From Amphiscolops sp. MND2022 (Eukaryota), in the NCBI GenBank assembly GCA_964187785.1, contig OZ076409.1, positions 28,150,001 to 28,214,000 of the forward strand: a DNA stretch of 64,000 nt, in the 5' to 3' direction. The notes under the pieces are model-generated. The model searched no databases and was not told the origin of the DNA. It was given only the letters and a program-made list of their open reading frames with translations. Shown here piece by piece: positions 4,848-62,393 of the stretch. Numbering within the stretch: the stretch's first letter is position 1; each line of letters starts with the position of its first letter. A program made the position numbers and the translations under genes.

Positions 4848-7800
4848 TTAAGATTTAGAAGTTCCAGGAGCGTTTATATTGGAGGACTGATTGACGTCTG
4901 ATCCACTCGTGGGCTTGAAGCAAACCTTTCTACTCTTCTCGGGGGTCTGCTTGCGGGATTTACCTCCTTCTTTCGATGAGGAACTGGAGACGCACTCAGG
5001 GTCGGGCCGGACACCTTTACACAGAGCTTTATATACAGCGACCAGAATCTTGTGAAAATTAGCCCTGCCAAAGCTCTCAACGTGAGTCCAGGGATCTCCG
5101 GGGACATTGCTGCTGCTGAACCGCAACTCCAGATCTTTGAATGTACCCAGGGAAGCTTCAGTAGTACAAGCAGCTACTGCGCCCGAAACGTTGGCGAGAT
5201 AAGACTGGGCGGGCATGATTACGTCGAACAGCCGACTGCGGGGTTCACTACAATCGACCCCAGAAAACTTGACGGCTGGGAGCTCTGGCGATTTGGACGT
5301 GAGGCACAAACAGCTCAGCTGGAAGAGGTGGAATAGATGCTTGCGCATCTTCAGCTCTGGCATTCCCATCAAGGTCACAACCATGTCTGTGAAGACCTCT
5401 GGGGTGTTCTTGGCTCCAGAGTTGACTTCCCGAAAGTACTCTAGAAATTCGACGTACTCGTCGCGGATGTCGGCCTCTGAGGAATTCTCCAACCACCCTC
5501 GCAAGCTGAAGGAACGGTGGAGCGCGGAAAAGCAATATGTGGCCTGCTCAAGAGGCAAGTTCAGGAGGGCTACCGGGTCGAAACTGGCTAGACCCCTGAT
5601 GATACCAGCATTGAGGCTAATATCGGCCAAAAAGACTTTCAGCAGGTGGACGAGATAGCTTCGGGCCTTGGTGGCGAACTCGTCCCGGGTGGCTTCAACT
5701 GCGGCTTCTGTCTCTTCTGGAGTCAACTGCTTTTCGCTGTAAATCCTCTTTACTCGCGCAAGGCAACAAGCATCAAGATTCTCTTTCAACTTCAGCCGAC
5801 TCAGGAAATCGCGGTTTGACAACTGCTTCCAATTTTGTCCCTGCATGTCATCCAGGGCCTTCCAGTCCAAAATCTCTGGAACATGCTTGGGAAGCAGGGC
5901 ACGCGCAGCTAACTTGCGGATGAAGGTGTGGAATTCCCGGAAGGTGTAGAATCCACTGTCCCTTCGCTGGGCAAACTGGCTCTCGAAGCTCTTGGTGTCT
6001 GGAATACAAAACATATATGATTACCCTAATTGGTCCATTCTACGGCTACGGACCTAAAGTTGGAAGTCTACTACATCTTGGTCAGGTTTCTTGTAAAAGC
6101 AAACAAAAATAGGACTCTGTGTCCATGTGACAAGACAAAAGAGGTAGATACTAACAATCACGAACGATCCGCGCGAAGAATTCCAGTTTGATGGTGAAAA
6201 AATCATCGCCGATGATCTCCCATTCCAAACTCTGGGGTTTGTGTTTGACACCCTGGTGCACTTGTGGGGGAGCAATCTTAGTGAGATACTGGTGGATGGC
6301 CTTCCAGTTCGCGATCAATTCGGAGCATATGGCGGGCACGGCAGAAATCTCCGGATGACAGGTCGACATAGCCTATAAACAATATCAAAATTAAAATCGA
6401 CCTGTGGTTGGATCTACAGTCGATGTGACGTTGTCCTTACCTTGACGAATTCAGGCATCAGTGCGGCCCAGGGTTGTCCGCTGCAACCGTCTAGAAAGGT
6501 GACCAGAAACTTCAGCTGCGAGAAGAAGCTAATGGCCCCAAACACGCTGCCCCATCGCTCGTGCATCATGCTGGGTAGACTCAGTGCATCGAATCGGAAG
6601 GGGTACTCTATTCCCTTCTGGAAGAGTTGAGAACGCTCAAGCAGAGGGATCAATTCTGCGGGACACCCAGACACACTCACGATTTGAGGCTGGGCGGACA
6701 ACACAGACAAGAGGCGAGAAAGAGCATGCAGGAAGCCTGCAGCAGGTTCCGAGGCTGTGCGATAACGCAGTAGTCGGACAACGTTGAGACAGTCGCCCTT
6801 CCAGAATCGGATTGACACGAAACTGTAGGTGCCTCGTGTCTCAAACTCCAAGGAGTACTGTCCAGTGACGCTGACGTGGTACGCAATGTCCGCGATACCG
6901 CAGAGGAAGATGTGATGGAAGATCGTCTAAAATGAACCAACAGGGATGAAAATATGCTCAGGCTATAATGGCCTGAAGGACCTAGAGGCTTAAAATGGAT
7001 GATACTTACAGTCAGCGTGGTAGAACCCCAATCGTAGGGGGAGAACAGGTTCTGGTGATTGGTCACGGTGCCAATCTGAGCCCACAGCAGCTCGAGGACA
7101 TGGAGGTCTCCGCATCGGGGAGCAAAGAGGGCTACCATGGAGATTTGGACGCACAATCTGATTTCCTCCTGCCCAGCAACAGATCCTAGCCCGGCCATGT
7201 GGTCCTCGTAGAAAGGATAACTACATCCCATCTCGACTAGGGGAACCTGCATGAAGAAGGGCTTCTCACGCTCTAGCTCAAGAGGGGTTAGCACTTGTCC
7301 TTTCTTCCCTCTGACTTCATGGACGATTCGACCAGTCACTGCGTCCTTCTTCTTCAGGTGTTCATATCTCCAGCGCTGGTCCTTGCGGAAATGGGCCTCG
7401 CACTGGAAATGCCGCACAATCTCTCGGGCGCCTTTGGAGAACATGGACACGTTGGTCTTGCATATCTGGCAATAAAACTTGTGTTTATTATGCTCAGGGT
7501 CCAACGGTCCAGTAACAAAAGTCCGAGTCCACTGTATTCCCTTGAAATAGGCCTCCTTCATTATTTTGCCACTTCGGGCAGGAACTCGGCGGCGTTTGCG
7601 AGGAGGACTAACGGCAGAGGTTTGATCCCCTGTCAAGGTAGCTAATGGCTCATAGTCCGTGGAGCAGAACCCAGGACTAGGAACTTGCTGGCTGGTTGTC
7701 GGCCTACTTGCACTGAGGGAATCTTGAGCAGGAGGACTAGGAGGAGGGGCAATGTTGAGTTCTCTCCCGGTTCTTTGAGAATTCACCACGAACTCATCCT

Positions 7801-8827
7801 CAGAACTGAGGGCTCCACTTGTGTACCCTTCGGTACTAGCGTCACTATCCAGTCCAACTAATCCAGGACTGTCTGACTTCTTGCGGAAGCACTTGACTCG
7901 TTGCCGATTAGGACTCTGTTGAACATTCTGTGACCTGATTCCTACTCGGATGGCTGCTTCCAAGATGTTCTTCATCTGATGAAGGGACGAAGTAATGGTC
8001 TCAGAGGACACAGCGCGCAGAATGGAATGTACTTGGCCCTGATTAAAGGCCACTGTGGCATGCCCGACTGGAAGGATACTCGGATTCGTTTCGCTGAAAT
8101 GTTGATCGATGAGGGTCCGAGCAGAAGCAGACAAAGGCCTAGTAGGACTAAGAAGCTTCGGGGACGGAGCATCAGGCAACCCAGCTGTAGTCGACGGTCC
8201 AGCCTCCTTGGGGACTTCAGACTCCACAACGCTCAAACTCTCCATGTTAATCAGGAAAGGAGGTTCTTTAAGGGTCTCTGCGCCAGAACTGTCAAGCAAC
8301 TCTTCGTTGTCACTTGTGTCAGTTTGGAAATAATCTGCCTTAGCGACAGAAAAGCCAGTTTCACTTCGGATGTCAGCTGCAGGGTCGACATCGACTTCAC
8401 TCGACTCCTGATTGGAGGCTTCTCCCACTACCTGAGGAATGGGGTCCGACTCGGGGACTTTCTCAATAGCTGGATGGACAGCCTTATCTACAATAGCAGC
8501 GCTAGTAGGGGGTAAGAAGGAGATGTCAAGACCAAGGCCCTGGCAACCCAAAGTCTGCAATTGACGGTCAATGTAAGCGGAAATGCTTTCATCCGTAGAA
8601 GGGCTTGGGGTCGGAGCAGTCTTATCAGGATTATCTCCTGGCGGCACTAGTTGTATGGACTCAGGGTCTGCAGGGATCGATCGACCAGCTTCTTCGGGAA
8701 TGGCAACTTCTTCTTCAGTCATGGATGCAGTAGCGGTGACAGGAACAATATCATTTCGCTCTTCGGACGTCATGTCTAAACAGAAAGAGATAAACTCAAG
8801 CGGATAACTTCCTGAGAAAGAGTCCAT
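4848..8827 (-). CDS. Antisense 4-exon gene (8827-7010, 6926-6441, 6372-6156, 5998-4848), ~1223 aa; BED-like zinc finger and NLS; probably derived from a hAT-type transposase
   Basis: GT-AG introns of 83, 68 and 157 nt join four minus-strand ORFs into 3672 nt with no stops; the same intron positions occur in element 2; motifs SPPRKRRR and FYCQICK...RHFQCEAH. The start codon is less certain than the exons. Confidence 0.85.
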
Positions 8828-10054: not shown

Positions 10055-10896
10055 ATGGATAAATTCCTGGCAACTCACTTCGACTGTGATTCTCCTCAAT
10101 ATTACCCCGAGGACTTTCAGGGGGCAGCGCCCGGAGACGGAATAATATATATATATCATCGGACGACGACATGGAATGTGTCAGCAGCGCATCTGTTGAC
10201 GACCTAGAAAGCCTGTCTGACGACGATGAGATGGCCCTCCTGGCTCAATGCGTGGAGAGACAGATGGAGCTTCCATCGACATCAGAAGCAATTTCCATCC
10301 CTTCCTCTGCCAATAAACAGGAAGTGACACGCGCCGCGACTCCCAGACTAGCGTACGTCCCTGGGCCTATGTTCGACGCTGGCTATTTTGACTTGGGAAT
10401 TGGCAGAGGGCCAATTGCGAGAGACCCGCGACTAAGGAATGATCACCCGATCAATTTGTGTAGCCAGCTAATCCCTATGGTCGACGCGCCTATGTCTCCC
10501 CCAGCCGTCGACAAATATCCGTCAGGCGACTGGAGAATAGCAGCGGAAGCCGCTACTAGTAGCAAACAAGAACATGCCAACGGAATACACTTCAGGGGAC
10601 CAAGTGGCGCAGATAACCCCTACATCTCAGGATGTACGGACTGCCTCGTCTGCGGAAAATCAGTCGAACAGATTCAAGACGAGGCAGTCATCGACTACCT
10701 TCATAAAACAACCATCCAAGGAGAATCGGCCCTCCAATTCAACGCAAGAAGGCTAGCCTTCCTAGAAGGAATGAAGGTGGGATGTTTTATGCTCATTCCA
10801 GGGGGAGTGTCCCAGGCGTCCGCCTGTGATGGAAATCTTTATACAATCAGTCACGACTACAGGAAGGCGCAGCCCAACACCCTCCCACTGAATTAA
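10055..10896 (+). CDS. Sense accessory ORF (unknown function) overlapping PPT and 3' LTR; +2 frameshift in the (AT)n run near 10145-10156
   Basis: Homologous to element 2 ORF 31727-32579 (YPEDFQGAAPG, AQCVE, NxHPI, PMVDxPMSPP, DCxxCGKS, PGGVSQAxACDGN). Confidence 0.8.
10798..10807 (+). other. Polypurine tract of element 1
   Basis: CCAGGGGGAG immediately 5' of the LTR-start TGT; identical in element 2. Confidence 0.8.
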
Positions 10897-12380
10897 GTTT
10901 TACAAGCAAAACTATATTTGTTGCTTTAAAAAGTCATGTAAAACTCTATATATTTCATTTTGTACAAGTTATATTATGTAATTCTATGTATTAATACGAG
11001 TTAATTGGACACCAAGGCGTACAGGTAAAGGAAACGCGTTCAAATGTTTTCTTGCCTGTCGCCTTGGTCCGCAAGTCCGACTAACTCGTCATCCAATCAT
11101 AGCGCAGTGTTATGTAACCTTTACTCGTGCTAGCTTAATAGATTAAAGGACTAGACAGCTATATGCCGCCTGCTAATAAAGCGCCGGGCTGTACCAGTCT
11201 ATTGGACACTGAGTCCGCGCTTTAATTGAGAGTGCTATTCTATCTAGCAGTACTGGTTATGTAATAATTAATCTTTTGATAACTAATAAAAGGCGCTATT
11301 GGTCCTCAAAGGACTGATTTAATATTTTAGACTTAGTTTGATGGTGTTGCTTCATATGTAATTTGCGCAATATATTTAGTTTAGAATATATGTAAAATTA
11401 CTATCTATACATGTAGTAAGCATTTCATACATGTAATATGTATTTCATACATGTAGTACGTTGCTCAGTATGCATGTAAGCAGTTGCTTGTCCTAACGGA
11501 CTCATGGTCCCGCCGCCATATTTGCCGCCAAGAGGGACCTTTGATCTATATGATGTAATGTTGACGTTGCCTGCTATTTATAGATTGTAGCTATATTTAG
11601 AAAGCCCTTAAGGCTATTTTTAGAATATGATCACCATTTTATTGAGTGTCATGCAGATTCAAATATATATAACCGGGACTGGTGGTCCCGGGGACAGAAT
11701 TATTCTGACGATACTTTGATACGTTACTGTTGCATTACTGTTGCGAACTGTTTATTAAAACTACCCGTTCATTTTCACTTTGCAAGCCCGAGATATTAAT
11801 TTAAATTCTTGCCTCTTGCAATAATCTCTTATGCCTTCTACTAGACGTCAAAAGGCCAAAGCTAGGAGATCTAGAGAAATGGACATGCTGTCCGACTATG
11901 ATAACCTAGATGTGATGCTGGGAAATGAAAATAATAATCCCATTGAAAGAGAACTAGCCGAAGTGATAGATCAGTCGTCGGCCCACGGGGACGATGATAC
12001 AAACGTGTACCATGAAAATGAGTTCAGAGATTACTTACATGAAAATGAACCTTTGAGGCAAAACGAAGTCAGACAATCCTTTGAGGCCTTTTCAAGTGAG
12101 TTTAATCTTAGATTGTCTCAAGAAATGGAATCTATGATGTCAATAATGCATAGCCAAATAAATAGAGCTATAACAACAGCTATAGCTGAAAGAGTTATTC
12201 CAGAAATTCAGAATATTGCGAACTCGATGTCCTCTATGGGACACAGGGACACTGAGGCCAGTTCGTCCCCAAATAGTCAGGAGAACAGGGAAAGCGCACC
12301 CGGGCCTAAAATAAAAATTGCAAAGAAAGATTCAAGATCTGTAGGTGACTTAAGAGATACCATGGGTCATGGTTCTTACA
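10808..12380 (+). repeat. 3' LTR of element 1 (1573 bp)
   Basis: TGT...ACA termini; start homologous to TGTCGCAGGC of the other LTRs; TATA-like box near 11663; contains gag-N ORF. Confidence 0.88.
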
Positions 12381-16400: not shown

Positions 16401-19400
16401 ATTACGGCCAAAACTCAGCGGACGTGAATTCTCAGGCTGAGATTAACAAGTTGTCGAGTGAGTTAAACTCTAGAATATCTAGAGAAATGAATGAGATGAT
16501 GAGTAGCGTTAGTTCTCAAATCCAAAGGGCCATAAATGAGGCTATAGGTACTCAAGTCTCAAATTCAAAATGTCATGATGGCCGGATTGGGACGTGAGAC
16601 TAGGAGAGGATGGGAAACTTCTGTTGAGAGACCGGAAATTAACTCCCAAATTCAGTTTAATTTCAACGTGAAAAATAATCTTAGAAATGAACAAAGTGAT
16701 GACCACCGCAATAGCGAATTCACTAACCGAAATGTTCATGACAGCCGGACTTGGCCCTTAGCGGTTTCAGGAGTTTCTCTAAAAAGTGGTCTGATCAGTG
16801 TGAGGTCTGTGGTCTGAAGAGAAAAAAGGTCACTGTAAGAGTCGGGCATTTTTCCTTGAAAGGAAAAGGCGCCGACTGAAAAGAAAATAGCAAAACTGAA
16901 CAGTGTGGAATTTTTCTTCGTGTACAATCAATGTTGTTCAAAGTACCGATTCCTTCAATTACCTCTCCCGCGTTGTTGTGGTAACCAATTTATTCATAAC
17001 TTATTTATTTTATTTTCCGCCTTCATAAAGTTATTTGTGTAGAGGAAGGAAAATCACCATCAGTGTTGTGGTTTATTGCCAAAAATCCACATAGTGGAAA
17101 AATCCATTAACTTCTTCAGTTACTTAAGTGAAATAGATAAATTTGTCACGGTGACCCAGTCCATAGGGCGCTCGCCTGCCAATCAGTAGGTTGTGGGTTC
17201 GAACCCGGGCTGGAACCTCATTTTTTTCTGCTTTCCCAGGCAGCACCTCGTCTTTGCCATACTTTTTTGCTTATTTCAGAAAGCTTCGTTTTCGCTCGGG
17301 TTTGCAAGCCTCGTTTTCGCTAAACCTTTTTGCAATATGATTGTTGCAGAAAATTACCCTGTGGTAAGCGGGCATCTTGTTACAGTTCCGTGTGTGCTAG
17401 TACAGAAACAAATTCGTGATTTCATTCACTTCAACTGTTTCAAACTAGTTAGTTTTTCTTTGATCGTCTCGATTTACTAGTTTCCTTCCTGTTCCCACTG
17501 CAGCTAAATCGCAGATTTTGGAGGATGCAGCAGCAGGATTATGCACAAGGCAAAATGCCCATAGGATGCCATAATGGACCTATATAACGGTGATCAATCT
17601 GCGCGAAGAGCGTTTCAAGGGCTTTCTAACGATAATACCAAGTTGTCTTTCAAAATATACCGTTTATGTCAGGAGAAGGTTTATTCGAGACATGTCGTCA
17701 AAAAGAAACGACACAGTTCGTTATGCAGCTCGAGATCTTTCAAGTACACCGGAATTACAATTGAACCCTGGAGTTATTCCGCGAGTTCGGAGAAAAAGAT
17801 GGTTGGAAGCAACATAATGGAAGAGAGGAGTTATTCTGAGCAAGAAAAACAAATAACAAAGTATGAAAATTGCACAAAGGTATGCTAACTGGACACCGGA
17901 AGACTTCAACCGGGTGATTTGGTCGGCTGGAACAAAAGTGAACAGATTTAGTTCAGAGATGCCCTCGCCTCAATATTGGACCACCATGTGCAACGTACAT
18001 TCAAACACAGAAGTTTTAGATTAATGCAATGGAACTGTATGGCATAATGAATCAACCAGGCGTGTAAAAGGAAAAACATGGATAATTGGATTCATTGTGA
18101 GACTTTATCAGATAGTTTAATGGGAACATTGAAACACTACGGATAGGGAACTAATTACATACACTTCAACCGGCTAATGACTCTAAACATACACTTGGGT
18201 TAGCAGAGGACTTGTTCGTGCAAAATAAAATAACAGTTACTGTCGCAGGCTGCCGCCTGCGATGGCAACATCTACACAATTGACCATACGAGGCCAACCG
18301 CCCTACCTGGGACACTCCCATTGTAAACTAAAACTTTCAAACATTTAGTATTTTTTTGAATATGTAATGTTGATTGATGAATTGTTTTATTATTTAAAAT
18401 ACATTTGACAGCAAGCTACACTGACAGGCGGAAAGGAAACGTGTTCAAATGTTTGCCTGTCCAGTATAGCTAGCTAAGCCGTCCATGGTCAATTGGCCAA
18501 TCAGAGTGCAGTTTATAACAGCCATCTTATTACTCATTACGTAACTGCGCTAGTAGCTATTTAGAATGGACCAATACGGCCAATTAGCTTTGCCGGCCTT
18601 AATGTAATTTGATGCTATACTTGAATGATATTCAGTAACTACAAATAGGACGAAAGCGGCTATGTGACATAGCCGTCCCTATTCACTGTATTAATTGTCT
18701 TGGTGCTATACAGTAAATAAGGCCTACCACGGCCGGTTGACACGATGAACACTCAAGTGCTGTATACTGACCACAAGAGATTGGTGTCACAATTGATTAG
18801 TGATGAAAAGACACAAGTAGCCCTCCCCCATGCAATAACAAAACGCATATATTGTTGACATGTAGTGTTGCTTTTCGTATTATACTGGGATCAAATTAGA
18901 AAGCCCCAACGTTTACAGGCCATATAGGGCTTACATGTATGTGCTCAAGTGTAATATTGTTTTGTGAAACTGAAAGGGAACTGAAAGTCCCTTACAGTTA
19001 CTTACCATATGTATTTTACATGAATTATGTTTACATGTAAAAGTGTTGATATATATTACGTTACACATGAGTGTTATTACCTACTCGTCATATGGCCTAA
19101 ACGGGCGTTTTGATCTAACCGCTCACGTAGGCCTACGATGATGTCATGTTGCTATTTATAGTGCTGACGTATCTATTTTTAGTTTGCGTTGCTGTTTTTA
19201 GTATCATGACCATAACAATTTTGCCTGTCATGCCCTCTGGGGTATATATACCCAAGTCGGCCTGACAAAGGTTAATCATAATTTTGCAGTTACCTGATAC
19301 ATCACGCTCATTTTTGATTAACCTGAATATAGAAATACTTGTCCACAGGAACAATGCAAATATTTTCTCCTGGAATAACGTTTTCAATGCCTTCTACGAG

Positions 19401-22400
19401 GAGACAAAAAGCCAAGTCTAGGAAATCCAGTGAATTAGATATGTTGTCCGATTACGGCAACATGGACGTGATGCTAGGTGAGAGAAATTCCCACTCTATA
19501 GAAAGAGAACTTGATAGCTTGATTAACGTCCCTGAGGGACAACGAGACTTTCAGTCCTTTCCGAATAGAGAAAATTGATCTCAAGAAAATGAGATTAGAG
19601 ACATCGATAGTAGAAATGAACTTGTTAGGGAAAGTAGACTGATAGAGTCTATCAATACACTATCTGGGGAAATGAATGCTAGGATGTCACGCGAGATGGA
19701 GGCTATGATGGACCTAATGCAATCACAGATTACCAGGGCCATTAGTTCTGCTATAAGCGAGAGAATTCTTCCGGAAATACAGAATATGGTAGAAAATTTG
19801 CCTTCGGGCCAACATGACGTTGAGCCGGGTACGTCCTTAAATGAGGAAGGAATCAGGAATGCATGGAAGAATACAAATACAAGATTAACAAAGAAGGATT
19901 CAAGGTCCGCTTGTGATCTGAGAGACCACACGGACGTTAGCCCTTACATGGTGACAGGAGCTACCGAACTCCAACAGCCGATTCCTGAATTCCTCACAGG
20001 ACGAATTCACTCTCAGCCAGACCTCCAAAGGCAAGAATCTGCACATGACGCAACTCTGGATACAACTCTGCCAGTAGCGGAGCCCGTTCCGGCAGAACAG
20101 CCATTGGACCCTATCAACCGAATAGCTGATGTCCTGGTAAACCTCCAAAACAAACCACAGTCGATGACAATCAGACCAGTCACGACGAACCCCATGACAT
20201 TCGACGGCAAAACAGAGAAATTTGAATTGTTTGAAGATTTATTTCATACAATGGTAAAGATGCAGCCCGCTATGACGGAACAAATGAAAATAAATCATTT
20301 TCATTCATTGCTCCGAAAAGGAGCCCTGCAGCCTTTCCGAAATATAAAATCCATAAACCGTCAAACATTAGAGGACGTATTGGTCATATTCCGCAGAAAG
20401 TACGTCAAACCTGAGTCCCAGGCCACAGCTAAACACAAATGGCATAGGCTCATCTTCGATCCCAACACAATGAAACTACCCGATTTTCTTGAGGAACTCA
20501 ACCAGGGTGTCGAGAAAGCCTTTGGGGAAAACGCCAAGAGCATGATCGATAGCCTCTTATACGCCAAATTACCCCCGAAACTCAAGAGATCAGTGAAAAT
20601 GGCCCGACTGGAAAACGGGACCTACGAGGAGATTGTGGCACATCTGGAACGAGAACTCGAGTTAAACGCATTAGAAGAATCTGATGACCTACCCATTGCT
20701 ACAATGGCTTCGTCGTCCAACAAATCCCGAAATTTACTATCCAATGGCATTGACACCAACAAAAATAACCAATGCTCATACTGCAAGGCAGAGGACCACT
20801 TCTGGAAAAATTGTCCAAAACTGAAAAAGAAGAAAGAATCAGAGGCCAAAGACGGCAAGAGGCCTCAACGACAAACTTATCCAGAATGCCCCACCTGCAG
20901 CAAAACCAATCATCCAGCAGAGAAATGTTGGCGTGGCGCTGGTGCCCATCTTCGTCCAAACGAAATAGACAAGACTCCTCCAAAGATACGGAGCCCTCTG
21001 AAGACGAAGGCACTCGCACCAAGAACGAAAAATCCACAACGTCCTCATCAGGCCAATCGAATTCCAAAAAGCCTGAATCAAAAAACTAATTTTGCCACGA
21101 CTCCAACTCTCTGATCAAATGTCGATACGACAATATGTCGTATCAGACCCAGCTAATATCGCCTACAAGCAATCACAAAAGGACACACAGGGACCCCATC
21201 GACTGTCTGGCAGCAGCAGATGGCGGAAGCCTGTACTCAAACCCAATACATTATTCACAGTGACCACCCATATCTATATCGACGTAATAACCTCACTAAA
21301 GACTCAGAAACCCAATTCCGACCCTTACAAATTGTCGAAGACTACAACCCCAATACTATGACCCTGAGTACGGCAAAGACCCGTACTGGGATGATGATAT
21401 ATACGATAGGCACAATTTACAATTTCGGAATGATGACTACCCGCCAACAGATGATGAGGATGACCCTGACATTGTGGACACCATACTGTCCCGGGCACTC
21501 ATCGAACCGTGGCAACCAAATTTTGATGCAATCAAAGATCAGCCGCATGCAGAAGAGACACAGGCCACACCTGGCCTCCTCGACGAGACAGCCTTCATAC
21601 ATGTCCTTGTAACTAAAGAGGGAGAACCAGCATACATACCCTTATCCACAAACCTCGGACTCAAATACAAAAAACGGATGCTATATTTCCCGATGGACTT
21701 TGGGGAACTAACCATAGACGGCCTCATAGACACTGGAGCGCACTCCAGCGCAATACCGGAAGCAGACCTCAGGAAAATACGCCTACTGGCGCCCCAATCC
21801 ATAGTCAAAGAGGGACCTGCCCCGACGTTTCAAATTATGGTCGCAAACGGACAATTGGAAACCCCAAAGAGCACTGTTGAACTCAGGTTCGAAGTCGGAG
21901 ATATTGAATTCCACGAAATATTTATAGTAATGGAAAAACTGACTGGCCCTATCATAGGACTAATGTTCCTCCAGAGGAATCATACAGTACTGGACATGCG
22001 ACAAGGCATTCTCAATTTCCCATATTTCTCGATGCAACTCAAAACGGCTGACCATAAATACTCCAACGTACTGGAACCAATACTTAACCCAGACGCTATC
22101 ACAATACCACCCAATGACCGTACTTTGGTAGAGATCAAATCCCAAATATACAATGAAAACACGGTCACAGGAGTGTTGCAACCCAGTGATCTCCTCCATG
22201 AAGAAGGCGACATCAGATTCTGTGCCGCAATAGTCGCATTGACTAGTGGAAACGTCAACGTTCATATCACCAATTTCACAGACCAACCGTACAAGCTTAA
22301 AAAGGGGCTACACATAGCAAACTTTTCCGTACTAACACCGGAATAGATGAAACACGTCAAACCAATTGACCCTGGTGTCCACCCTGGTGACCCTGGCATC

Positions 22401-25400
22401 TCCTCAATGAAAACGAAGAGGATGCGATCTACTATGTCAGTAGTCTACTCAAGGCTAACCGGAACAATGACCAATATGAGCAGTACTGTTTCCCAACGCC
22501 AGAAAACCCAGGGAACGAAGATTCCCATACTCCCATCCAACGACGAATTCTTCAAGAATTACGAAACCTCCAAGAAGCTGAACAATTGAATCCTCAGAAT
22601 GATGATGAGTCACTCCGCAAATTCCTTGGCAATTTCGACTGGAAAGACTCCATGCTGCAACAACATGAAATCAAAAAGATCGAATCGCTTCTAGTCGAAT
22701 ACCATGACATATTCGCACGACACAGATTTGACATCGGAGTGAATGAAGAATTCACGGTCAAACTGACCCCTAAGGACGATTCGCCCGCTTACAACCGAAG
22801 TCTTCCAACTCCAGTCAATTCAGAAGAGGACATACTTGTCGAACTGGCCCTCTTACACAAATATGGCATAATAACTACCCTGCCCTTTTCGAAATACCCC
22901 AGTCCCATATTCGCACAGAAAAAGCCGAATGGGAAGCTAAGACTACTAGTCGACCTGAGAAAAATTAATAACCTCATTTCGGATGACTACATAAACAACA
23001 ATCATCCGGTTAGCACTCTAACAGACGCTGCACAACATATGGCAGGAAAGAAACTGTTCTGTAAACTTGACTGTTCACAGGCATACCACTGCCTACCAAT
23101 GGCGGACCAAGGGTCCGTTGAGATGCTTGCGTTCAATTTTGCAAGCCGCACATTTGCGTATAGACGACTTGCTCAGGGCCTTAGCAGAGCATTATCAGCC
23201 TTTTCAAGTTTCATGAGGGAATACCTGGATAAAGTTATCAAAGCTGATCAATGTGCCCAATATGTGGACGACATCGGCATAGCCGCCAACGACGCGGATC
23301 ATCTCATCAAAAATTTGAAAGCCACCTTTGAGTGTATCAGACATGCGGGCCTTAAACTAACAAGGCACAAATGTCACTTTGGGGCAACGGAAATCGATTT
23401 TTTGGGAAGAACAATTACCCCGGAAGGTGTCAAACCACAAAAGGAGCGAATAACAAACTTCCTAGGAAAAACCAAATTCCCCAAGTCTAAAAAAGCTCTG
23501 CAAAGATATCTTGGTTTCCTCAATTATTACAAGAACTATATCCCAAGACTATCTGAAAAATTAGCCCCTTTCTTCCAACTTCTCAAAAAAGACGAAAAAG
23601 TCCTAGTGACTACAGAACTAATACAACAGTTCAATGAAATCAACCGGGTTGTCAACAAATGTAGCCAATTGGATCTGAAGCAACCTTTGCCAAACAAGCA
23701 ACTGGTCCTGATGACAGACGCTAGTTTCACAGCGGCCGGCTACGCCATACTTACCGAGGACGACCCAAACCAGAAATATTCATCTGTCAAAAAATCATAC
23801 GCTCCAATTGCATATGGCTCAAAAACTTTTACGCCATCGCAACTCAAAATGTCCATATACGCCAAGGAATTCTTAGCGATTTATTACGCATTCAAAGAAT
23901 TTGAACATATTTTCTGGGGAGCCCCTAAACCGATTACTATCCTCACGGACAACAAATCGGTCACGAGATTCTTCCAGACGAAGATAATCCCTCCAACACT
24001 CTGGAATGCATGTGACTATGTAATACAATTCAACTTTGTCATAGCACATATACCAGGAAAAACAACACAGCAGCCGACTACTTATCTCGCATGGAAATGG
24101 ACCCCAGAGAGAAACTAATCCTTAAAATCCGCGAAGACATAGAGACTAAGCCCATCGAGGTCAATGTCCAATCGGCAGGCGTTGCTGAAGAGGAACAGGT
24201 TTTCTTCACGGTGCAAGATGATGAGACAGAAGCTCAAATTTGGGAACGTAAAAAACAAAGCCGAACTAACCCAATCGACCAAGAAGGCGTAATTCAAATT
24301 GACGCAATATCTGAAAATTTAGTAGTTGAAATTACGAACTTTACCCAAAAATTACGCAGAACGAATCAAATCTTACTTGAACAATCCAAGGACCCTATAC
24401 TGCGCCAACTCAAAGCCAAAATTCAGACGAAGACTACTCTAAAGAGCTACTCCAGCAAGATATCCGATACAAACACTACCTCAACAACTTGGACCGAATA
24501 GTCCTTAAAGACGAAATAGTCACACGACAATATTATGATGAAACTGGACAAGTCAAGTATCACCAGGTTCTCTTACCAAAACACCTTTTGACAGAATTCT
24601 TACAGGCCTTATCCGGAACGGCGCACAAACACCCTGGCATATCGAAAATGTTACAAGAAATCCGACAGAAATACTACTACCCCGGTATAGCAAAACATGT
24701 AAAAAAATGGGTAGAAGGATGTGTAACTTGCGCAAAAGATAAACGGGTTCCAAACAACACGATAACACGTGAATTGCTTAACTTGCCAGAATGGGACCTT
24801 GGACCAGAGGGCGCAATGCAAATCGATTTACTCCCAAACTTACCAACAAGCGGGGGTTACCAAACAGTGATGACAGCAACAGATGTCTTTTCAAGATATC
24901 TGTTTGCCTACCCGCTAGTTGAGGCAACAGCCTCTAACACGGCAAAGGTCTTAATAGACATCATGACAAAGCACTCATATTTGCCAACTACGATCATCAC
25001 CGACAAAATTTTACATGCTTTTACATCAAAAATTATTGCAGAGATAACGCGAATCTTGGGAATAACCCTAAAATGTGCGACGACTAAACATCCACAAACA
25101 ATTGGCAAACTCGAGAGAACTCACGCCTCATTGAAGACAAACTTGAAAATGGCCTCAGGGGAAAATCGCCGTCAATGGCACAAATATTTGCCACTAGCAG
25201 TGCTCAATTATAACACAACTTATCATTCCAGCATCGGTTGTGAACCGAGCAAGGTCTTTCACGGAAGAGTTCCCTATAATGTTCTTGATCATAAACTTGG
25301 AAACAATCCTAATAAGGATTTCCTCCCGACGACAGAATTTGCTGAAGAATTACAACAGAGAACGAAAGTTCTCATTGACAAAACGAAGCATAACATTATG

Positions 25401-28400
25401 CAGTCCTACTTGAAATACAAGGAGTACTATGACCGAAAAGCCAAGGCAGCTCCTCTCAGCGAACAAGATTTTTGTTTTATCCTACAGCCTAAAGCGGATA
25501 ATCAAGGATCAAAAATACCATTTAGAGAATATCGCTGGATCGGTCCTTATCGAATTGAAAAGGTATTACCTAACGACAATTACATTGTCCGCCGGTTAAA
25601 TACGAATAAAACACAGATATTACACCGAATCCGCCTGAAAAAATTTGTTCCAAACACGTCTTTAGAGGACAAATATGCCAAAGAGAAATTGCAACCAGAT
25701 GATGAAATAATCATACCGCAAGATGATTTATACACCATCTCATGGGAAGCAGATTTTGACTACCATGTCTTCGAGCCGAGACGAGACGATAATACGGACG
25801 AAGAATCGCAAACACCAGACAGCGATGCTGGTGTCACGACTAGTGATTACGTCATTTATGACAACGCTGATGACAACGCGGTAAGGCCGGGGACGGCCAC
25901 CAGCCGAGACGGCACAATCACACGAGACGCAAATGACGTCACGGAATTGAATGAACGAACCAAAAAGAATGAAAATGAAGCGGGACCGAGTACGGCCGCT
26001 AGCTGAGACGCACCTATAGTGCATGACGAACATGACGTTAACGAGAATGCTGCGCGAGATGAACAAAGCAGCGAAACAGGAATGCCGAGAACGGCCACTA
26101 GCCGAAATAGCCACAATGGTGGCAACACACCACCTAGTTCAGGAAAGAACGCGAATGACGTCACAAATGAATTAGAAGGCGAGAAAAACTCTCTTGATGA
26201 GGGGGATGATATTACCGTGCCCGGAATATCGAATGAAAAAACAAATGAAAAAACTGATGAAAACTCTAGCCCTAGAGGGGGGAAATACAACCTTCGACCT
26301 AATCCCAACCCCAACTATACTGATGAATACAGATACTAGTCAGAAATGTTAAATTGTGTCCCTCTTTATTTTATTGCCCGAGATGGCATGTTTTTTCACT
26401 GGGACCTTTCTTACTTTAAAACAGACTAACTGCATAAATATACAAACAGAAAACTACTACGAAACAAATATACAAATTGAAAGTGTAAAATAACAAATGT
26501 TCTCTATGTACATTTAGTCTTTAGATGAGCCTTGACGCAGCTCCTTCACCGTCTTGGAAATCTCGCTAGGAGGGATGTCGCCGAAATAAGCCAATTCCTG
26601 GGCTTTACCAGCACAGCAGAGCTGGAAACAGAGGATGAACGAGACGTAGTGGCAACCACAGCAGTTGGAACTCCTTTCAGATTTTTGTAAGCCGTAGTTA
26701 ACGTTTTGAGGAAATGGGCTCGACCAAGAACGTCCACATGAGACCAGGGATCTCCGGCAAACTGGCATGAAATAAACTGGTCAGACAATTCTTTGTATGC
26801 AGCCAAAGCGGACTCAGTAGTGCAAACGGCTATCGCATCAGGGCAGTTGGCCAGATAAGACTGTGTAGGTAGAATCACAGCGGAAAGACGACAATTCGAA
26901 CTAGATGTATCTTCATCCTGGAATTTGACAGCTGGAAGGTCATGATGGTCCTCAGTGATGCAGAGACAACAGAGCCTTTATAGACGAGTAAGCACTGCGT
27001 AGGTAGTCCACAAACTCGAAATATTCATCTCGGCACTCGCTCTTAGAAGCTTCGTCTACCCAGCCTCGAACTCGCAAACTATCGTACAGGGAATCGAAAC
27101 AGAAAGTAACCTGGCTGAGCGGCAGAGAGAGCAATACGTGAGGGTCGAAACAACCCATCCCGTGCACAATGTTGGCGGTGAAATGCACGTTGCGCAACAG
27201 AGCCTCCAGTAAGGACACAATGTAACCTCGGGTCTCAATTCCAAAATTCTCCCTCTCTTTGGCAATGAGGGCATCAAGACTTTGTTGGCCTGGCTTTTTA
27301 TCATCTTGATGTCGTTTTATTTTGGCTCGACAAGCTTGGTCCAAGTCGGTCTCCAATTTCAACCGGCTCAGGAAATCACGGCTGGATAACTGTTTCAAGT
27401 CATCGGGGCACAATTGAAGGAGCTTAGTCCATTCGGCATCATCAGGAGTACAAGAATCGCCCTGTGACACAAGCGACGAATAAAGCGGCAGTTAGGAAGA
27501 AGCACATTTGGGTGCATGAGTTCTGGTAGGGAGATGGCTTCAAATCGGAATGGATATTGAATCCCATTCTTGAAAAGACCGCTGGTCTCAAGGGCGCGAA
27601 AGACCATTTCCGTAGACAAACAAAGTTGCATCTCGTCGTCCTGCCAGGCTGCGTTCAAAACACTTTGTATCTAAATAAAATACAGACTCAAAACGTGAAA
27701 ATGAAGCTCCATAGCAAAAGCGTGCTAAATATGACCTAGTGGCCGAGCGCGGCAATTGGAAAAAGATGGAAATTAGAACTAGACAAACATAGGAAAGGAA
27801 CTAACAATCTCGGACCAAACAGGAGAGGAACTCAAGCTTGACGGTGAAGAAGTCGTCTTGGATTATCACCCATTCTAGACTCTGTGGCTGAAAAGGGAGA
27901 TTACGCTTTCAAAGGAGTAAGATGCATGTTATACTGGCTTAAGACAACACTGGGAAATTGGGACCATCTTACACCGAAGCGGAATGAAAGGTTAAAGATA
28001 TACAAACCTTGTTCTTGACACCTTGCAAGACTTGTGTTGGGGCCGTCTTCGTCATGAAGTCAAGGACGTTCTTCCAGTGTTTGATGAGTTCAGTACACAG
28101 AGCTGGGATTTTCTTCAACTGAATGTCGCATGCAGCCGAAGCCTACAAAGTGGGGACGAAATAACATGGAAAGATCTGAGTTACGTTTACCACAAAAGGA
28201 AAACTCAACTACAAAACTGCTGACGAGGAAATAAAAACCAAAACGGTGGATCAAAAATAGATGAAAACCTTGCAAAGCTCCGGACACTGTAGGGCCCATG
28301 GCTGGCTCTGGCACCCGCGCAGAAAGACAACCAGATACTTGAGTTGTGTGAACATGTCGATTCGGCCGAAGACATGCTTAGTTTGAAGCACATTTGGGTG

Positions 28401-31400
28401 CATGAGTTCTGGTAGGGAGATGGCTTCAAATCGGAATGGATATTGAATCCCATTCTTGAAAAGACCGCTGGTCTCAAGGGCGCGAAAGACCATAGAGGAA
28501 CAGCCAGAAACACTGACCAAGCTGGGTTTGGAGGAAGTGGAAGACAATACGTGCGAGATGGCAGACAAATAACAATCTGGATAAGCCTCCCCTTGGTGGT
28601 GGCGATAAAGTTCAACTCTTGCCAGTGTGTCATTCTTCCAAAACCGGATCGATAGGCAACGGTAAACGCCCTGGGTGGTAAACTCAAGCGAATACAAACC
28701 ACTGGAGAAAACATGTCCTGAGATGTCGGAAAGTCCGCGCATGAAGATGTGGTGGAAGATGTTCTGAAAAAGAGAATATGGGCTCAATCGTAGTAATTTC
28801 ACAACGAATCACCATCAGGATTCTAGGAAAAGAAATACTTACGGTAAGTGTAGCGGACCCCCCGTCGAAAGAAGAAAACAGGGCCTGATGGTTGGTGAAT
28901 TGTCCGACTCTAGTCCAGAGACTTTGGAGTAGTGAGAAATTTCCGTCCTTGGGAATGAAGGTGCCAATCAGGGAAATTAGAGTGCTAGTCCTTAAGTCAT
29001 CAGGGTTAGTGATACCCCCAATGCTGGCCATATAATCTTCAAAAAACGGAAACCGATCTCCTGCTTCGATCAGAGGGACATCCATGAATAACGGTTTCTC
29101 TTTCTCTAATTCGACGGGAGTAAGCACCCAGTCGTCTTTGCCTCTGACTTGGTGAGTCACATTGCCGGTGATTTCGTCGGTTTCCTGCAAGTGTACATAC
29201 CTCCACTTCTGGTCCTTCCTCAAATGGCCCTCTGTCCTGTAGTGTCGCAAAATCTCCCTAGCGCCCTTGGAATATATTGACACGTTCGTTTTGCACAGCA
29301 TACAATAAAATTTGAATTTGTTGTGTACGGGATCGAGAGGCCCAGACACGAAAGTCCGAGTCCACTGGATGCCTTTAAAGTAAGCGTCTTTCATGACTTT
29401 TCCTGGCTTACTAAGCAGTTTCCTTCTTTTCCGCGGAGGACTGGGAGTAGCTACATCGGATCCTCGTGGCCGTCTAAGGACGGATAATGGCTGGTGGTCA
29501 GTGCTGCTGTATCCACTTCCGATAGTGGGAGTCGTGACCTCAGCGCGAGACGTGCTGGGAGTGAACCTAAAAGGCGTTTCAGGAAGTTTTGTTCTTGATC
29601 CAGTCTCACTTACCCCATCTATCCCAGATATGGACCCCACTTGATACGGGTCCTCGTCAAAATTGAACGCCCCGCTCGTATAGCCGTCACTGGTATTTCT
29701 TCCGAAACTGCCTTCATCACCTGAACTGCTAGAAGGCCGACGAGCTGGTGTAGGGCAACGCCGAGGCATACTTCTCTTCTTGTCTTGTGAAGTCCCACTA
29801 GTGGCATGTAGCAAGAGAGATTTCATCATGTGATAAGAAGATATCACAGACTCATCGGCAACAGTGCGAAGGATGGCGTGGACCTGATCCTCATTAAAGG
29901 CAATGGTCGTATGACCGGCTGGCAATTGGACGGGGGTGGCCTCTGCGAAATACTTCATAATGACCGATCTTCCTTTGACTGATAGTTGCCTATCGGAATT
30001 GGCAACCCTAGCGCGATATTGCTCCTGCTCTGTGTCGCTGTGGCCAGACTCGGCCCGGAATTCTCCCTCGAACTCGGAGAAAGCAGAAGGATCCCACGCC
30101 ATGGAGGACGTAATGGGAGGAAATGCATCTAGGCCAGAACTATCTAAAAGTTCTTCAGCATCGCTAGTGTCTCCATAAAGGGGAGCAGCTCCAGATTGCG
30201 AAGTCGACTCGGGCTCATTGGCAGGTCCAGTTTTCTCCTCGCTCACGTCCTGACTAACGACGATTGGGTCAGAGACAGAAACTTTCAAAAGTTCAGGGAA
30301 GATTGTCGACGTAACTGTGGCAGGCATAGGTATCGGTATGTCACTGATCTCAGATTCACGTGTTGGGAATTCCATACATGTGGCGATTCTTTCAATAAAG
30401 GCAGAGACGCTCTCCTCTGTAGACGGACTAGAAAAGGACGTTTGGGACAAAGGCCGGACAGGGTCAACTTGTGCTGCGTTACCTTGCTGCTCTACTTCAG
30501 TAGATCCGTTTCCATCACCACCGGGAACAGTGGATTTTGGCATTTCCTTCTCAGAAGACATATCTAAACAGAAGGATATAAAGTTTTGCGGATAACTTCC
30601 TGAATATGAGTCCATGAACAACTGCAATTAAAACCTTCCGGAAGTGAAAAGAAAATATTCCAAATGCTAAACTTGTTTAGTGAAAATGGACAGGAAGTCA
30701 ATGAACGAGAGGAAAAGCCCTGATCAAGCTTATTTCCGTTCAAAAATTGAAAAGACCAAATAGCTTACCTGCGGATGATGGACGTATAAGGACTGAAGGC
30801 AGTTGCTCACAAATGCAAGAGTATGTGTTGCACCAGTATGCTCGGAATAGCAATGAAGGACCGATGAGGCCAGATGAATTGCAGGAGTGAAAACGTGGAA
30901 GATGAATTGGAGAAGATTCCAAGAAGGAAAGTGACGGTAGTGGCGTCGGGACAGAAGCGTAAATAGCGACGGAAAGAAAATAAACTGTTCGCTGATGAAC
31001 TGATTTAAAATGATGAAGACTAAAAGACTGACTAAAGACCAAGTAAACAATGGATAAATACGAATATGGAAATGTAACAATTAATGAATTGGAAGAAGAT
31101 GAAAGTGATTGCAAGAGCAAAGTTGGAGTTCGTGGCAAACTGGATTTGATGTCAAATATTTTTACAATTATGAGAAATATTTTGTGGATGGAATCGGCCA
31201 GAGAAATCCACATTAGTTATATTTCGAAACATGCAATTTCATTATTTTATTATCCTGGTTATTTCAATAATTTATTATTTCCTTATTTGGATTATTATTT
31301 TAATTCCGCTATTTTGAAATGAAGGCGGTAAAGACGATTGCTATTGGCTGTCGCGGCGATGCGCCGCGCGTGGCCTTAAAACTTCATCACCCTCTCTTGA

Positions 31401-34400
31401 AATTCTCAAGTGGATATCAAGTGGAGATAAACACTCAGCGGTGTCATTGATGGCTCTTCGCCGCGTCGGGCAAACGACTGAAGTGATGATGTAAACAAGG
31501 CGGCTTGTTGGAACCATCAAAGGATGTTTAGGAGAATTTATTAGTGAAACGATCACCGGGAGAGATGAGACCCCGGGAAAAAATCATGAGACTTGAAAAT
31601 CTTTCAGACGAAGTCAGCAAGGAAAAGTTATCATTCTCTCTTCTGAAGCTTTCAATAACAGTTGGTTAGCGGAACTTGAAAATTCCAAAACTCATTCCAA
31701 TTCTTATAAAAATTGCTAAGAATTTCATGAATGCAAGATTCATGGCCGCCCTATACCCTGAAGACTTCCAAGGCGCAGCGCCCGGCGGTGTAGACATAAT
31801 CTGCCTATCCAGTGACGAAGAGGAGGAAATGGGCGACCAGAGCTTGAATTCAGTGCTAGACCTTCAATTGTCATCAGAACGATGAAGAGATGGATGACGA
31901 AATCATGATAATGGCCCAATGTGTCGAGGCGCAACTATCATCTCCTATCCCAATACCTGGTTCTTCAATAGCTCTGCGAATTAGAGATGAAGCCCCCCAA
32001 CATAACTTGCCAAGATATGGGACCTCTGGGACGAGCTTTGCAGTGAGGCCTACTCTCGACCAATCCTTCTTCTCACTAGGGAAGGGAAATGGCCCGATAC
32101 GGCGAGATGACCGCGTGCGCAACAATCACCCTATCAAGTTGTGTAGGGAAATCATTCCAATGGTAGATACACCTATGTCGCCCCCACCTGAAGAGAGAGG
32201 ACCAATTTACGATTCCTATTCGGTGGACGGTCAGAGCAAACTCTCCCGACAGTCCTTGGACACGGTTGCAAACCATTTCCAAGGAATGGAAATTGAGACG
32301 AACAGCCCAATGGGGAATTACTCAGACTGTGTGATATGTGGAAAATCTACCTTACAAATTCAGAGCGAAGCAGTCACGGATTATTTGCGCAAGACGGCCA
32401 TTTTGGGAGAATCGGCAGATCAGCTAGAGGCACGCAAAAGAGCTTTTATGGAAGGAATGCAGGTGGGCACTTTCCTATTACTACCAGGGGGAGTGTCGCA
32501 GGCTGCCGCCTGCGATGGCAACATCTACACAATTGACCATACGAGGCCAACCGCCCTACCTGGGACACTCCCATTGTAAACTAAAACTTTCAAACATTTA
32601 GTATTATTTTGAATATGTAATGTTGATTGATGAATTGTTTTATTATTTAAAATACATTTGACAGCAAGCTACACTGACAGGCAGAAAGGAAACGTGTTCA
32701 AATGTTTGCCTGTCCAGTATAGCTAGCTAAGCCGTCCATGGTCAATTGGCCAATCAGAGTGCAGTTTATAACAGCCACCTTATTACTCATTACGTAACTG
32801 CGCTAGTAGCTATTTAGAATGGACCAATACGGCCAATTAGCTTTGCCGGCCTTAATGTAATTTGATGCTATACTTGAATGATATTCAGTAACTACAAATA
32901 GGACGAAAGCGGCTATGTGACATAGCCGTCCCTATTCACTGTATTAATTGTCTTGGTGCTATACAGTAAATAAGGCCTACCACGGCCGGTTGACACGATG
33001 AACACTCAAGTGCTGTATACTGACCACATGAGATTGGTGTCACAATTGATTAGTGATGAAAAGACACAAGTAGCCCTCCCCCATGCAATAACAAAACGCA
33101 TATATTGTTGACATGTAGTGTTGCTTTTCGTATTATACTGGGATCAAATTAGAAAGCCCCAACGTTTACAGGCCGTATAGGGCTTACATGTATGTGCTCA
33201 AGTGTAATATTGTTTTGTGAAACTGAAAGGGAACTGGAAGTCCCTTACAGTTACTTACCATATGTATTTTACATGAATTATGTTTACATGTAAAAGTGTT
33301 GATATATATTACGTTACACACGAGTGTTATTACCTACTCGTCATATGGCCTAAACGGGCGCTTTGATCTAACCGCTCAAGTATGCCTACGATGATGTCAT
33401 GCTGCTATTTATAGTGCTGACGTATCTATTTTTAGTTTGCGTTGCTATTTTTAGTATCATGACCATAACAATTTTGCCTGTCATGCCCTCTGGTGTATAT
33501 ATACCCAAGTCGGCCTGACAAAGGTTAATCATAATTTTGCAGTTACCTGATACATCACGCTCATTTTTGATTAACCTGAAAATAGAAATACTTGTCCACA
33601 GGAACAATTCAAATATTTTCTCCTGGAATAACATTTTCAATGCCTTCTACGAGGAGACAAAAAGCCAAGTCTAGGAAATCCAGAGAATTAGATATGTTGT
33701 CCGATTACGGCAACATGGACGTGATGCTAGGTGAGAGAAATTCCAACTCTATAGAAAGAGAACTTGATAGCTTGATTAACGTCCCTGAGGGACAACGGGA
33801 CTTTCAGTCCTTTCCGAATAGAGAAAATTCATCTCAAGAAAATGAGATTAGAGACATCGATAGTAGAAATGAACCTGTTAGGGAAAGTAGACTGATAGAA
33901 TCTATCAATACACTATCTGGGGAAATGAATGCTAGGATGTCACGCGAGATGGAGTCTATGATGGACCTAATGCAATCACAGATTACCAGGGCCATTAGTT
34001 CTGCTATAAGCGAGAGAATTATTCCGGAAATACAGAATATGGTAGAAAATTTGCCTTTGGGCCAACATGACGTTGAGCCGGGTACGTCCTTAAATGAGGA
34101 AGGAATCAGGAATGCATGGAAGAATACAAATACAAGATTAACAAAGAAGGATTCAAGGTCCGCTTGTGATCTGAGAGACCACACGGACGTTAGCCCTTAC
34201 AGTTACCAACCGGCTTTCACAATCACCGGAAATGATCCAACATAAAACGACGCCCGCTAAGCACCGGGATATTTTCCGCTAAAAAAACGCATCAACGCAT
34301 CAGCCCGGGTTCGACCCGCGATCTCGTGTGGAGATGTGCTAATGAAAATGGGAAATTGGTCAAGTAACTAAATAGTCAAATAACTATATAAAATAGTCAA

Positions 34401-43070: not shown

Positions 43071-43374
43071 CTTCTAAAAGGTCTGCCGGACAACAAGAAT
43101 ACTTTTTCAACAACGTACCCTACGAAATCTGTCGAGAAATTGGGAACAATTGCATGAAAACGGTAAAAATTGTTCGAAACTCAGAATTTTTTGTCTGTTG
43201 TGGAATCATTTTGGGTCATTCGATGGTCGTTGGTGTCAACTAAAAATTCCCAAAATCTCCACACTTACAATTAGTATGAAACTAAGTTTATATCACTTGA
43301 ATTGTATGTGTGAATCCCTTCAAAATGGGTACATATTTGGAACATGGTAAGTTAAATATTTTCCTTTCCCATAT

Positions 43375-55300: not shown

Positions 55301-55677
55301 CACGAACTCCTCAACAATCCTTTGTACAATATTTTCGCAGTAAACCTAATAATCCTCAAGAAAATCGAAATGACAATACAAATCCTTACTCCTCAGATAA
55401 TGATCGCAACAAATATAATCAACATTACTATAATGACAGATATAGAAAACATGATAGATATCGTAGCAATAGTAGAGAATATTCACACAACAATTATCGA
55501 TCAAATTCTCGACAAAGATATTATAATCGATCTCGAAGCCCATATAGATCTCGATTTGATAATTATTATCAAAGAAGGACTCCATCTAGATCTCCAAATA
55601 GATCTCCATATAGAAATAACTCAAATTACAGGTTTAACTCTCGCTCAAGATACAGATCTCGTTCTCAATCACAATGA
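52356..55677 (+). pseudogene. gag: gag of element 3 (5' part frameshifted; open 52690-55677)
   Basis: PFDG...EEYL capsid-like segment, CSYCHKKNHSISNC knuckle, RS/RSP-rich tail. Confidence 0.82.
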
Positions 55678-60729: not shown

Positions 60730-61002
60730 AATACGGAATACAGAAAGAAACACACAAAGAAAATTTGAAAGAAAAGCGAAAGTTAGAAGCTTAATGTGAA
60801 ACTGAATGAAAAATATTTCACAAATGATAATAAACGAAAGAAATTGATATGAAATTATAACTACTTTATAAACTGAAACAAACTACCTTAACACAAAGAT
60901 TTCAAAATTGATAGACATATTCACTCGCCATCATCAACCACAAATAACTCTTCTTCTAGTTCAACACGTTCACTCCAAAGATTACCTGAATATACAGCAT
61001 AT

Positions 61003-62361: not shown

Positions 62362-62393
62362 TTACAGAACAAAATTTTAACTAAATTTTTACC

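Follow-up and report, generated by a model that had tools for sequence, protein, structure and literature searches.

Exact presence and absence of a predicted intron in the antisense gene of two diverged Ty3/Gypsy subfamilies in an Amphiscolops genome

Antisense open reading frames (ORFs) located between pol and the 3' long terminal repeat (LTR), termed aORF-3R, have been described in Gypsy retrotransposons of plants and fungi, including gene23 of maize Grande and counterparts in rice RIRE2, Silene Retand (ORF4), bean PvRetro13 and Botrytis Boty (brtn) (PMC7264820), the last of which has also been named in PMC8365987. Retand ORF4 carries a transposase-28 domain, and the review of these genes, in which there is no whole-word match for "intron", calls for a search for antisense spliced transcripts (PMC7264820). 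Exact intron loss has been known from nuclear genes, with its mechanism still debated between recombination with complementary DNA (cDNA) and microhomology repair (PMC3698931). Loss mediated by reverse transcriptase (RT) predicts a 3' bias and, in its classical form, the joint loss of adjacent introns (PMC3698931). Both antisense genes in plant and fungal Gypsy elements and exact nuclear intron loss are therefore already known. The present analysis concerns a stretch of 64,000 nucleotides (nt) from Amphiscolops sp. MND2022 (assembly GCA_964187785.1, contig OZ076409.1, positions 28,150,001 to 28,214,000 of the forward strand), referred to as the window. It contains two Ty3/Gypsy elements, E1 and E2, each with an antisense gene in the interval that separates pol from the 3' LTR, and a predicted intron of this gene, intron 3, is present in E2 and exactly absent in E1.

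On the minus strand of E2, positions 28007..27888 hold a 120-nt insert that begins with GTTTGT, ends with CCCTTTTCAG and lies in phase 0 between AAC AAG (..GVKNK) and CCA CAG (PQSLEW). Retention of the insert would bring two in-frame stops, while its removal restores the frame. A GT donor, a pyrimidine tract and an AG acceptor can be recognised, the chance of a GT start and an AG end in a random insert of the same composition being about 0.003. E1 is uninterrupted at this site, where CAC AAA CCC CAG gives GVKHK-PQSLEW, and its 217-nt exon (6372..6156) corresponds to the two E2 segments of 135 nt (28142..28008) and 82 nt (27887..27806) with zero indels. Ungapped identity between the elements at offset 0 reaches 74 of 135 nt in exon 3a and 58 of 82 nt in exon 3b, compared with maxima of 40 and 25, respectively, at the other 18 offsets tried (-9 to +9). 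An earlier note on this DNA, made from the sequence alone, had described the phase-0 intron, the contiguous reading in E1 and the agreement of the exon lengths, and all of these are borne out at the DNA level; the imprecise indel that it had named as the contrary outcome was looked for in the alignment, and the junction was found to be indel-free. Across exon 3, 41 of 72 amino acids are identical between the elements, with agreement at 43, 60 and 28 of 72 first, second and third codon positions, respectively, and second positions are conserved and third positions diverged on either side of the insert.

The remainder of the gene displays the same organisation. After removal of its three predicted introns, the E1 antisense gene comprises 1223 stop-free codons, and exons 1-4 of E2 comprise 828 stop-free codons, followed by a broken last exon. 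The three introns shared by E1 and E2 occupy the same codon positions, in phases 0, 0 and 1, and differ in length (83/79, 68/126 and 157/135 nt) and in sequence, as the note had also stated; when the likeness of intron sequences was assessed in 21 pairs against shuffles, one pair gave p=0.02 and the three homologous pairs all gave p>=0.28. E2 has been inserted, between LTRs and with a target duplication, with all four introns in place, so that the introns evidently pass through the RNA intermediate, which they survive because the splice signals of the antisense gene lie on the strand opposite to the genomic RNA.

Intron states in relatives were read from unspliced protein ORF calls on ENA contigs, the search for their DNA loci having given nothing usable in viral contigs, metagenome contigs and prokaryote genomes. 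Exon 1 has 146 related clusters, some with more than 100 members. The best 120 listed are 49-100% identical to E1, and 107 of these reach the intron 1 donor; 106 of the 107 continue with Val (GTN, mostly Val-Ser), and a direct fusion of exon 1 to exon 2 occurs in none. Seven read-through ORFs carry unrelated inserts of 26-38 codons at intron 1, running from Val to Gln. Conservation ending at the donor, together with these unrelated inserts, supports the gene model by comparison. Intron 2 could be read in E1, E2 and five read-through ORFs, and is kept in all seven. Exon 3, used as a query, gave 14 clusters, 13 of them contiguous (79-97% identical to E1) and one, P0133, interrupted at the intron 3 codon by a 38-codon in-frame insert (V...FQ) unlike E2 intron 3 in sequence. 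Relatives of the last exon were represented by the best 150 of 419, four of which reach exon 3. Among the last-exon relatives, P0256 is contiguous at intron 3 (GIRDR-PHSLEW) and keeps intron 4, and P0263 breaks after GVKDA into Val-Ser, with exon 3b recurring about 104 nt further on in another frame (33.6 bits, compared with a 99th percentile of 13.9 over 370 proteins, P0263 itself being outside this matrix). The inserts of P0133 and P0263 have GT/AG-compatible ends. The ORF of P0249 starts with Met-Gln right before exon 3b, its Q being compatible with a CAG acceptor, which is suggestive, and only suggestive, of the presence of intron 3. P0330 has K before exon 3b, as in an intron-less copy; its intron 3 state was left unscored as ambiguous, as were the intron 4 states of P0334, P0286 and P0299. 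P0059 enters exon 3a out of frame, stops at the junction and gives no intron 3 state. Of the intron-less junctions that could be read, in 15 clusters or elements for intron 3 and four for intron 4, none was imprecise. Two further candidates, L001 and L002, were dropped as chance matches in another frame of bacterial genes (which by eye resemble an ATPase-like protein and a subunit of respiratory complex I), and longer, spliced homologues of the last exon were looked for in a weak search that gave no match.

These comparisons strongly support the prediction that the 120-nt insert is a spliceosomal intron of this antisense accessory gene, in line with the note's proposal that the gene is really spliced. 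A disabling insertion into a dead copy, or an error of assembly, would be a very improbable explanation of the insert. E2 is decayed and bears other lesions, including a 109-nt insertion in its last exon; nonetheless, the insert has a pyrimidine tract and canonical ends, P0133 and P0263 carry unrelated sequence within the reading frame at this very codon, the first four E2 exons are free of stops, and the contrast between codon positions holds on both sides of it.

Concerning the direction of the change, trees of the last exon place E1, E2 and P0263 in one strongly supported clade, with P0256 outside. Within it, a lineage of E1 and P0263 that excludes E2 has a support of 98/80 (LG+G4, 40 rows), 87/80 under the C20 mixture model (28 rows chosen of 41) and 97/72 (48 rows); among 1000 C20 bootstraps, 870 recover E1 with P0263, 59 E2 with P0263 and 45 E1 with E2. 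P0310 was left out of the 40- and 48-row trees, P0264 and P0235 were replaced in the latter by their cluster mates P0386 and P0394, and the exon 1 tree was a quick search only. On these trees the empty site of E1 is nested between two occupied ones, which would indicate loss, and a clade uniting the intron-3-less E1 and P0256 is rejected by the approximately unbiased test (p-AU 9.7e-5). Loss of intron 3 in the E1 lineage is therefore considered likely, and the trees suggest that it was lost independently in the E1 clade and in P0256. The note had left loss and gain side by side and had proposed that intron state be mapped on a phylogeny; this mapping, made with protein ORF calls of relatives, favours loss.

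Gain would require a single insertion of intron 3, into an AG proto-splice site of the common ancestor of E2, P0263 and P0133, with E1 and P0256 in the ancestral state. In keeping with this, P0256 lacks the intron outside the clade of E1, E2 and P0263, the junction AAG/C is close to a proto-splice site, P0330 has the K expected of an intron-less copy, and the tree uniting E2 with P0263, in which one gain suffices if P0249 is ignored, is not rejected (p-AU 0.167). The best trees, however, nest E1 among intron-bearing lineages, with few bootstraps for the alternative, and P0249, outside the clade, has the suggestive Q and ORF start right before exon 3b. There is also no visible donor for intron 3: the 64-kb window contains no other copy of it (best E 1.4), it lacks terminal repeats (the longest inverted repeat, 8 nt, is internal) and it does not resemble the other six introns of E1 and E2, although an old gain would look the same. 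Taken together, a gain appears improbable.

A second intron, intron 4, also differs between lineages. It is exactly absent in P0249, P0267, P0330 and P0386/P0390, where exon 3b joins the last exon with no residue added or missing. Present in 19 of the 23 scored rows and absent in four, it requires three changes; a single clade of the four intron-4-less rows is rejected (p-AU 1e-8), and P0249 and P0267 sit within intron-4-bearing clades. The trees suggest independent loss in P0249 and P0267, and perhaps in P0330 and P0386. Some of the intron-4-less relatives lie on short contigs of other assemblies, and one of their clusters has a JGI member (P0385), which indicates that the gene family extends beyond one assembly.

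A deletion guided by microhomology would account for exact loss without any messenger RNA (mRNA): RT or DNA repair would have jumped between the AG that ends exon 3a and the AG that ends the intron, and selection on the protein would have purged imprecise deletions. The E2 intron 3 junction, AAG/GT...CAG/, indeed offers 2 nt of homology, and single, non-adjacent losses fit such deletions. Microhomology has been reported to raise intron-loss rates in flies and worms (PMC3698931), and microsimilarity-dependent template switches have been documented for LTR elements (PMC5131818). The 109-nt insert of E2 would suggest that such jumps occur here, being by its sequence either a recent templated insertion (through an RT jump and return, or repair) or an assembly slip. 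On the other side, junction microhomology measures 0, 3, 2 and 0 nt in introns 1-4 of E1/E2, and the intron with the most homology, intron 2, is kept wherever readable, whereas intron 4, with none, is the most often absent and is exactly missing in four lineages; as measured in these two elements, microhomology does not predict loss across the four introns. In-frame imprecise deletions should also exceed exact ones, yet the intron-less junctions read include none. Homology-driven deletion is thus disfavoured as a general cause and, while left open for intron 3, is on the whole unlikely.

Exactness at two introns in several lineages requires a template or guide. Spliced antisense mRNA would carry the exact junction, and its source would be the same element that supplies the RT. 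On balance, the pattern is taken to reflect recurrent, single, exact intron loss templated by this mRNA, a mechanism to which the note had also pointed and to which we give modest preference. Introns would ride unspliced through each round of reverse transcription and be removed only from the antisense transcript, and the spliced transcript, or its cDNA, would occasionally supply the exon-exon junction over a tract that must be short, with crossovers falling inside exons 3a and 3b, considering that E1 retains the neighbouring introns 135 and 82 nt away. The product lacking the intron would then found a subfamily. Because the antisense transcript shares its polarity with minus-strand DNA, RT would most probably switch to it briefly while the plus strand is being made, or else the antisense mRNA would be reverse-transcribed and convert a copy already integrated, which would later spread. 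The spliced antisense mRNA may also act as a splint on the genomic RNA.

Several observations weigh against recurrent, templated loss, in addition to the one-gain tree described above. The branch that decides the direction for intron 3 is short (0.02-0.05), and P0133 is not placeable, the exon 3 tree being unresolved. The states of the relatives come from protein ORF calls and not from DNA, and ORF calling favours intron-less exons starting with ATG, so that the counts are not frequencies. Of the four intron-4-less records, three come from short contigs (1.7-5.2 kb) that might derive from RNA, the clearly genomic one being P0330 (89-kb contig); the short-contig ORFs begin inside or just before exon 3b, a start that a fully spliced transcript would not force. 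P0330 and P0386 are placed near the uncertain root, where absence of intron 4 could be ancestral, and microhomology was measured in E1 and E2 and not in the ancestors that lost introns. With regard to 3' bias, the variable introns are 3 and 4, while the 5'-most intron 1 is kept in 106 of 107 cases and intron 2 in 7 of 7, in samples that differ in breadth; intron 1 retention agrees with the prediction for RT-mediated loss (PMC3698931), but the bias is weak because the intron 1 census, spanning relatives 49-100% identical to E1, is narrower than that of intron 4. Finally, all readable losses are single, E1 keeping both neighbouring introns and P0256 keeping intron 4, contrary to the joint losses predicted for the classical process (PMC3698931).

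The features of the two elements are collected in Table 1. E2 is a Ty3/Gypsy LTR retrotransposon by its TG..CA LTRs, a 5-bp target-site duplication (GTTAC), a primer-binding-site-like sequence (TGGTGACAGGAGC at 19949) and a purine tract (CCAGGGGGAG before 32494). The pol domains of E1 follow the Gypsy order (RVT_1 370-535, RT_RNaseH 627-725, rve 999-1094). Upstream of its RT, residues 97-179 match a dUTPase-like domain (PF00692, E 3e-5), an arrangement described for Burro, fungal and rotifer elements (PMC6431247). The note had spoken of two copies of a retrotransposon; both are LTR retrotransposons, but with 76% nucleotide identity in pol and 40-50% amino acid identity in the antisense last exon they are diverged subfamilies and not recent copies.

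Table 1. Coordinates of E1, E2 and their antisense genes within the window.
Feature	Position	Strand	Remarks
E2, full-length Ty3/Gypsy	18241..34201	+	TG..CA LTRs, target duplication, PBS-like (primer-binding-site-like) sequence, purine tract, gag, pol with frameshifts
E2 LTRs	18241-19948 and 32494-34201	+	1708 nt each, 25 mismatches (98.5% identical)
E2 antisense exon 1	28843..30615	-	ATG at 30615; low-complexity N-terminus, basic patch, C2H2-like zinc finger
E2 intron 1	28764..28842	-	79 nt, phase 0
E2 exon 2	28269..28763	-	495 nt; homologous region predicted RNase H-like fold
E2 intron 2	28143..28268	-	126 nt, phase 0
E2 exon 3a	28008..28142	-	135 nt, last residues GVKNK
E2 intron 3	27888..28007	-	120 nt, GT-AG, phase 0; absent in E1; site also occupied in P0133, P0263
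E2 exon 3b	27806..27887	-	82 nt, starts PQSLEW
E2 intron 4	27671..27805	-	135 nt, phase 1; site empty in P0249, P0267, P0330, P0386
E2 last exon	26514..27670	-	broken: insertion, frameshifts, missing stretch
109-nt insert in E2 last exon	27499..27607	-	100% identical copy of exon 2 sequence 28385-28493, about 890 nt away, same orientation
E1 pol	187..4611	+	dUTPase-like, RT, RNase H, integrase; 5' cut by window start
E1 antisense exon 1	7010..8827	-	1818 nt
E1 intron 1	6927..7009	-	83 nt
E1 exon 2	6441..6926	-	486 nt
E1 intron 2	6373..6440	-	68 nt
E1 exon 3, uninterrupted	6156..6372	-	217 nt; intron-less junction between 6238 and 6237
E1 intron at E2 intron 4 position	5999..6155	-	157 nt
E1 last exon	4848..5998	-	1151 nt, open to stop
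E1 3' LTR	10808..12380	+	ends inferred from those of E2 (TG after a purine tract; terminal TTACA); 5' LTR outside window

Additional features have been observed around the antisense gene and the LTRs. A gag-like ORF seems to start inside the LTR (MPSTRRQKAK...) and to read across the LTR end and the primer-binding site (...SPY-MVTGA), at 19367-19948, 33586-34201 and 11825-12380; given this start, its first ~200 codons would be carried by 3' and solo LTRs. Three more LTR-like remnants with the same gag-leader ORF (MPTTRKQKKARKSRG type), 65-69% alike, occur at 16072-16649, 39298-39815 and 43352-44092. Between the antisense gene and the 3' LTR, a sense ORF of 240-270 codons is conserved (31860-32579 and 10090-10896, plus strand). 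It contains a CxxC motif and has no Pfam match, and the purine tract and the LTR start are embedded in its conserved coding sequence (PGGVSQA). A non-coding block, 70% conserved and about 500 nt upstream of the antisense ATG, is found at 9357-9522 in E1 and 31079-31230 in E2; lying between the divergent antisense gene and sense ORF, it is a candidate bidirectional promoter. A third, different, AT-rich Gypsy-type element occupies 52672-64000, with gag, a broken pol and downstream sense ORFs, the last of which (62385-63530) has a hydrophobic start, contains Cys, appears env-like by eye and has no Pfam match.

The antisense protein combines a long N-terminus of low complexity with a basic patch, a C2H2-like finger, the exon 2 domain and a helical last exon, a layout reminiscent of hAT transposases. 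PF25420 (C2H2) matches weakly in 31 of 37 members; the best E is 1.4e-4, and where the cut-off is shown it is not reached. There is no zf-BED match in the members. The predicted fold of exon 2 runs helix, three strands, helix, strand, with a predicted local distance difference test score (pLDDT) of 60-80 there, and its best Z, 7.2, is to RNase H-like folds, on which basis exon 2 is predicted to be an RNase H-like domain. In Foldseek, Hermes chains (PDB 8edg, 4d1q and 2bw3) rank 3, 4 and 7, with E 0.014-0.021 over 109-122 aligned residues that reach further upstream than the other top rows; the Hermes Z of 5.2-5.6 is not significant and is tied with many RNase H-like folds. No hAT Pfam family matches, and the C-terminal dimerisation domain (PF05699) is listed for none of 50 members. 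The model of the last exon (pLDDT 79.6) matched no solved fold (best Z 5.9), a result that says nothing on novelty, and PDB sequence searches with three queries gave nothing below E 0.4. Judged by the DDE motif, the putative position of the first Asp is E, T or A in different members, which would mean an inactive enzyme. Compared with Hermes, the protein shares a C2H2-like finger followed by helices and a predicted RNase H-like core, and differs in lacking a significant score, a hAT Pfam match and any match for the last-exon model. A captured, probably inactive transposase is thus a lead only. A wider and rather speculative extension would be self-editing of the element in the course of its replication: spliced antisense mRNA would pair with genomic RNA or nascent DNA in the particle, as a splint or plus-strand template, so that RT skips exactly one looped-out intron. 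The family would then be a natural many-copy record of RT-mediated intron loss, and the gene a hAT-like transposase that was captured, is probably inactive and has been retained for regulation or targeting; this combined scenario is possible, but doubtful.

In a literature search covering few subscription journals, no intron loss or gain inside the antisense gene of an LTR element was found. Nuclear genes offer one intron-loss event per millions of years. Here, one four-intron gene resides in an element that encodes RT, in well over a hundred diverged clusters, with introns that differ in junction homology and position. Since at least two introns vary exactly between lineages, 3' bias, adjacency, homology and expression could, given assemblies, be counted on independent events in one gene. 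Among the antisense accessory genes of Gypsy elements, which are poorly understood, it is also a new large member that is predicted to be spliced and may derive from a transposase.

As far as its sequence allows, the E1/E2 antisense gene fits aORF-3R, being antisense, placed between pol and the 3' LTR and represented by many related clusters, the relatives being known from proteins alone. It is like the genes described (PMC7264820) in position, orientation and presence across the family, and differs from them in its length of ~1220 codons, its 3-4 predicted introns and the exact intron differences between subfamilies. With RT-mediated intron loss it shares exact removal, intact exons and a hint of 3' bias; it differs in lying inside the RT-encoding element, in being copied via the opposite-strand RNA and in losing introns singly. 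Exact single losses and the 2-nt AG homology at intron 3 recall microhomology-mediated loss (PMC3698931), whereas homology does not track loss across the four introns. During LTR-mediated retroposition, the RT of an LTR element switches onto a co-packaged foreign mRNA and back, in minus-strand synthesis (PMC5131818). Here, by contrast, an antisense mRNA of the element itself is proposed as donor, which could serve only as a splint or while the plus strand is synthesised. Penelope-like elements, which are not LTR elements, carry introns in the sense of the RT gene. They are retroelements that keep spliceosomal introns (PMC4209133), as E1 and E2 are predicted to do, where it is the antisense orientation that explains intron retention.

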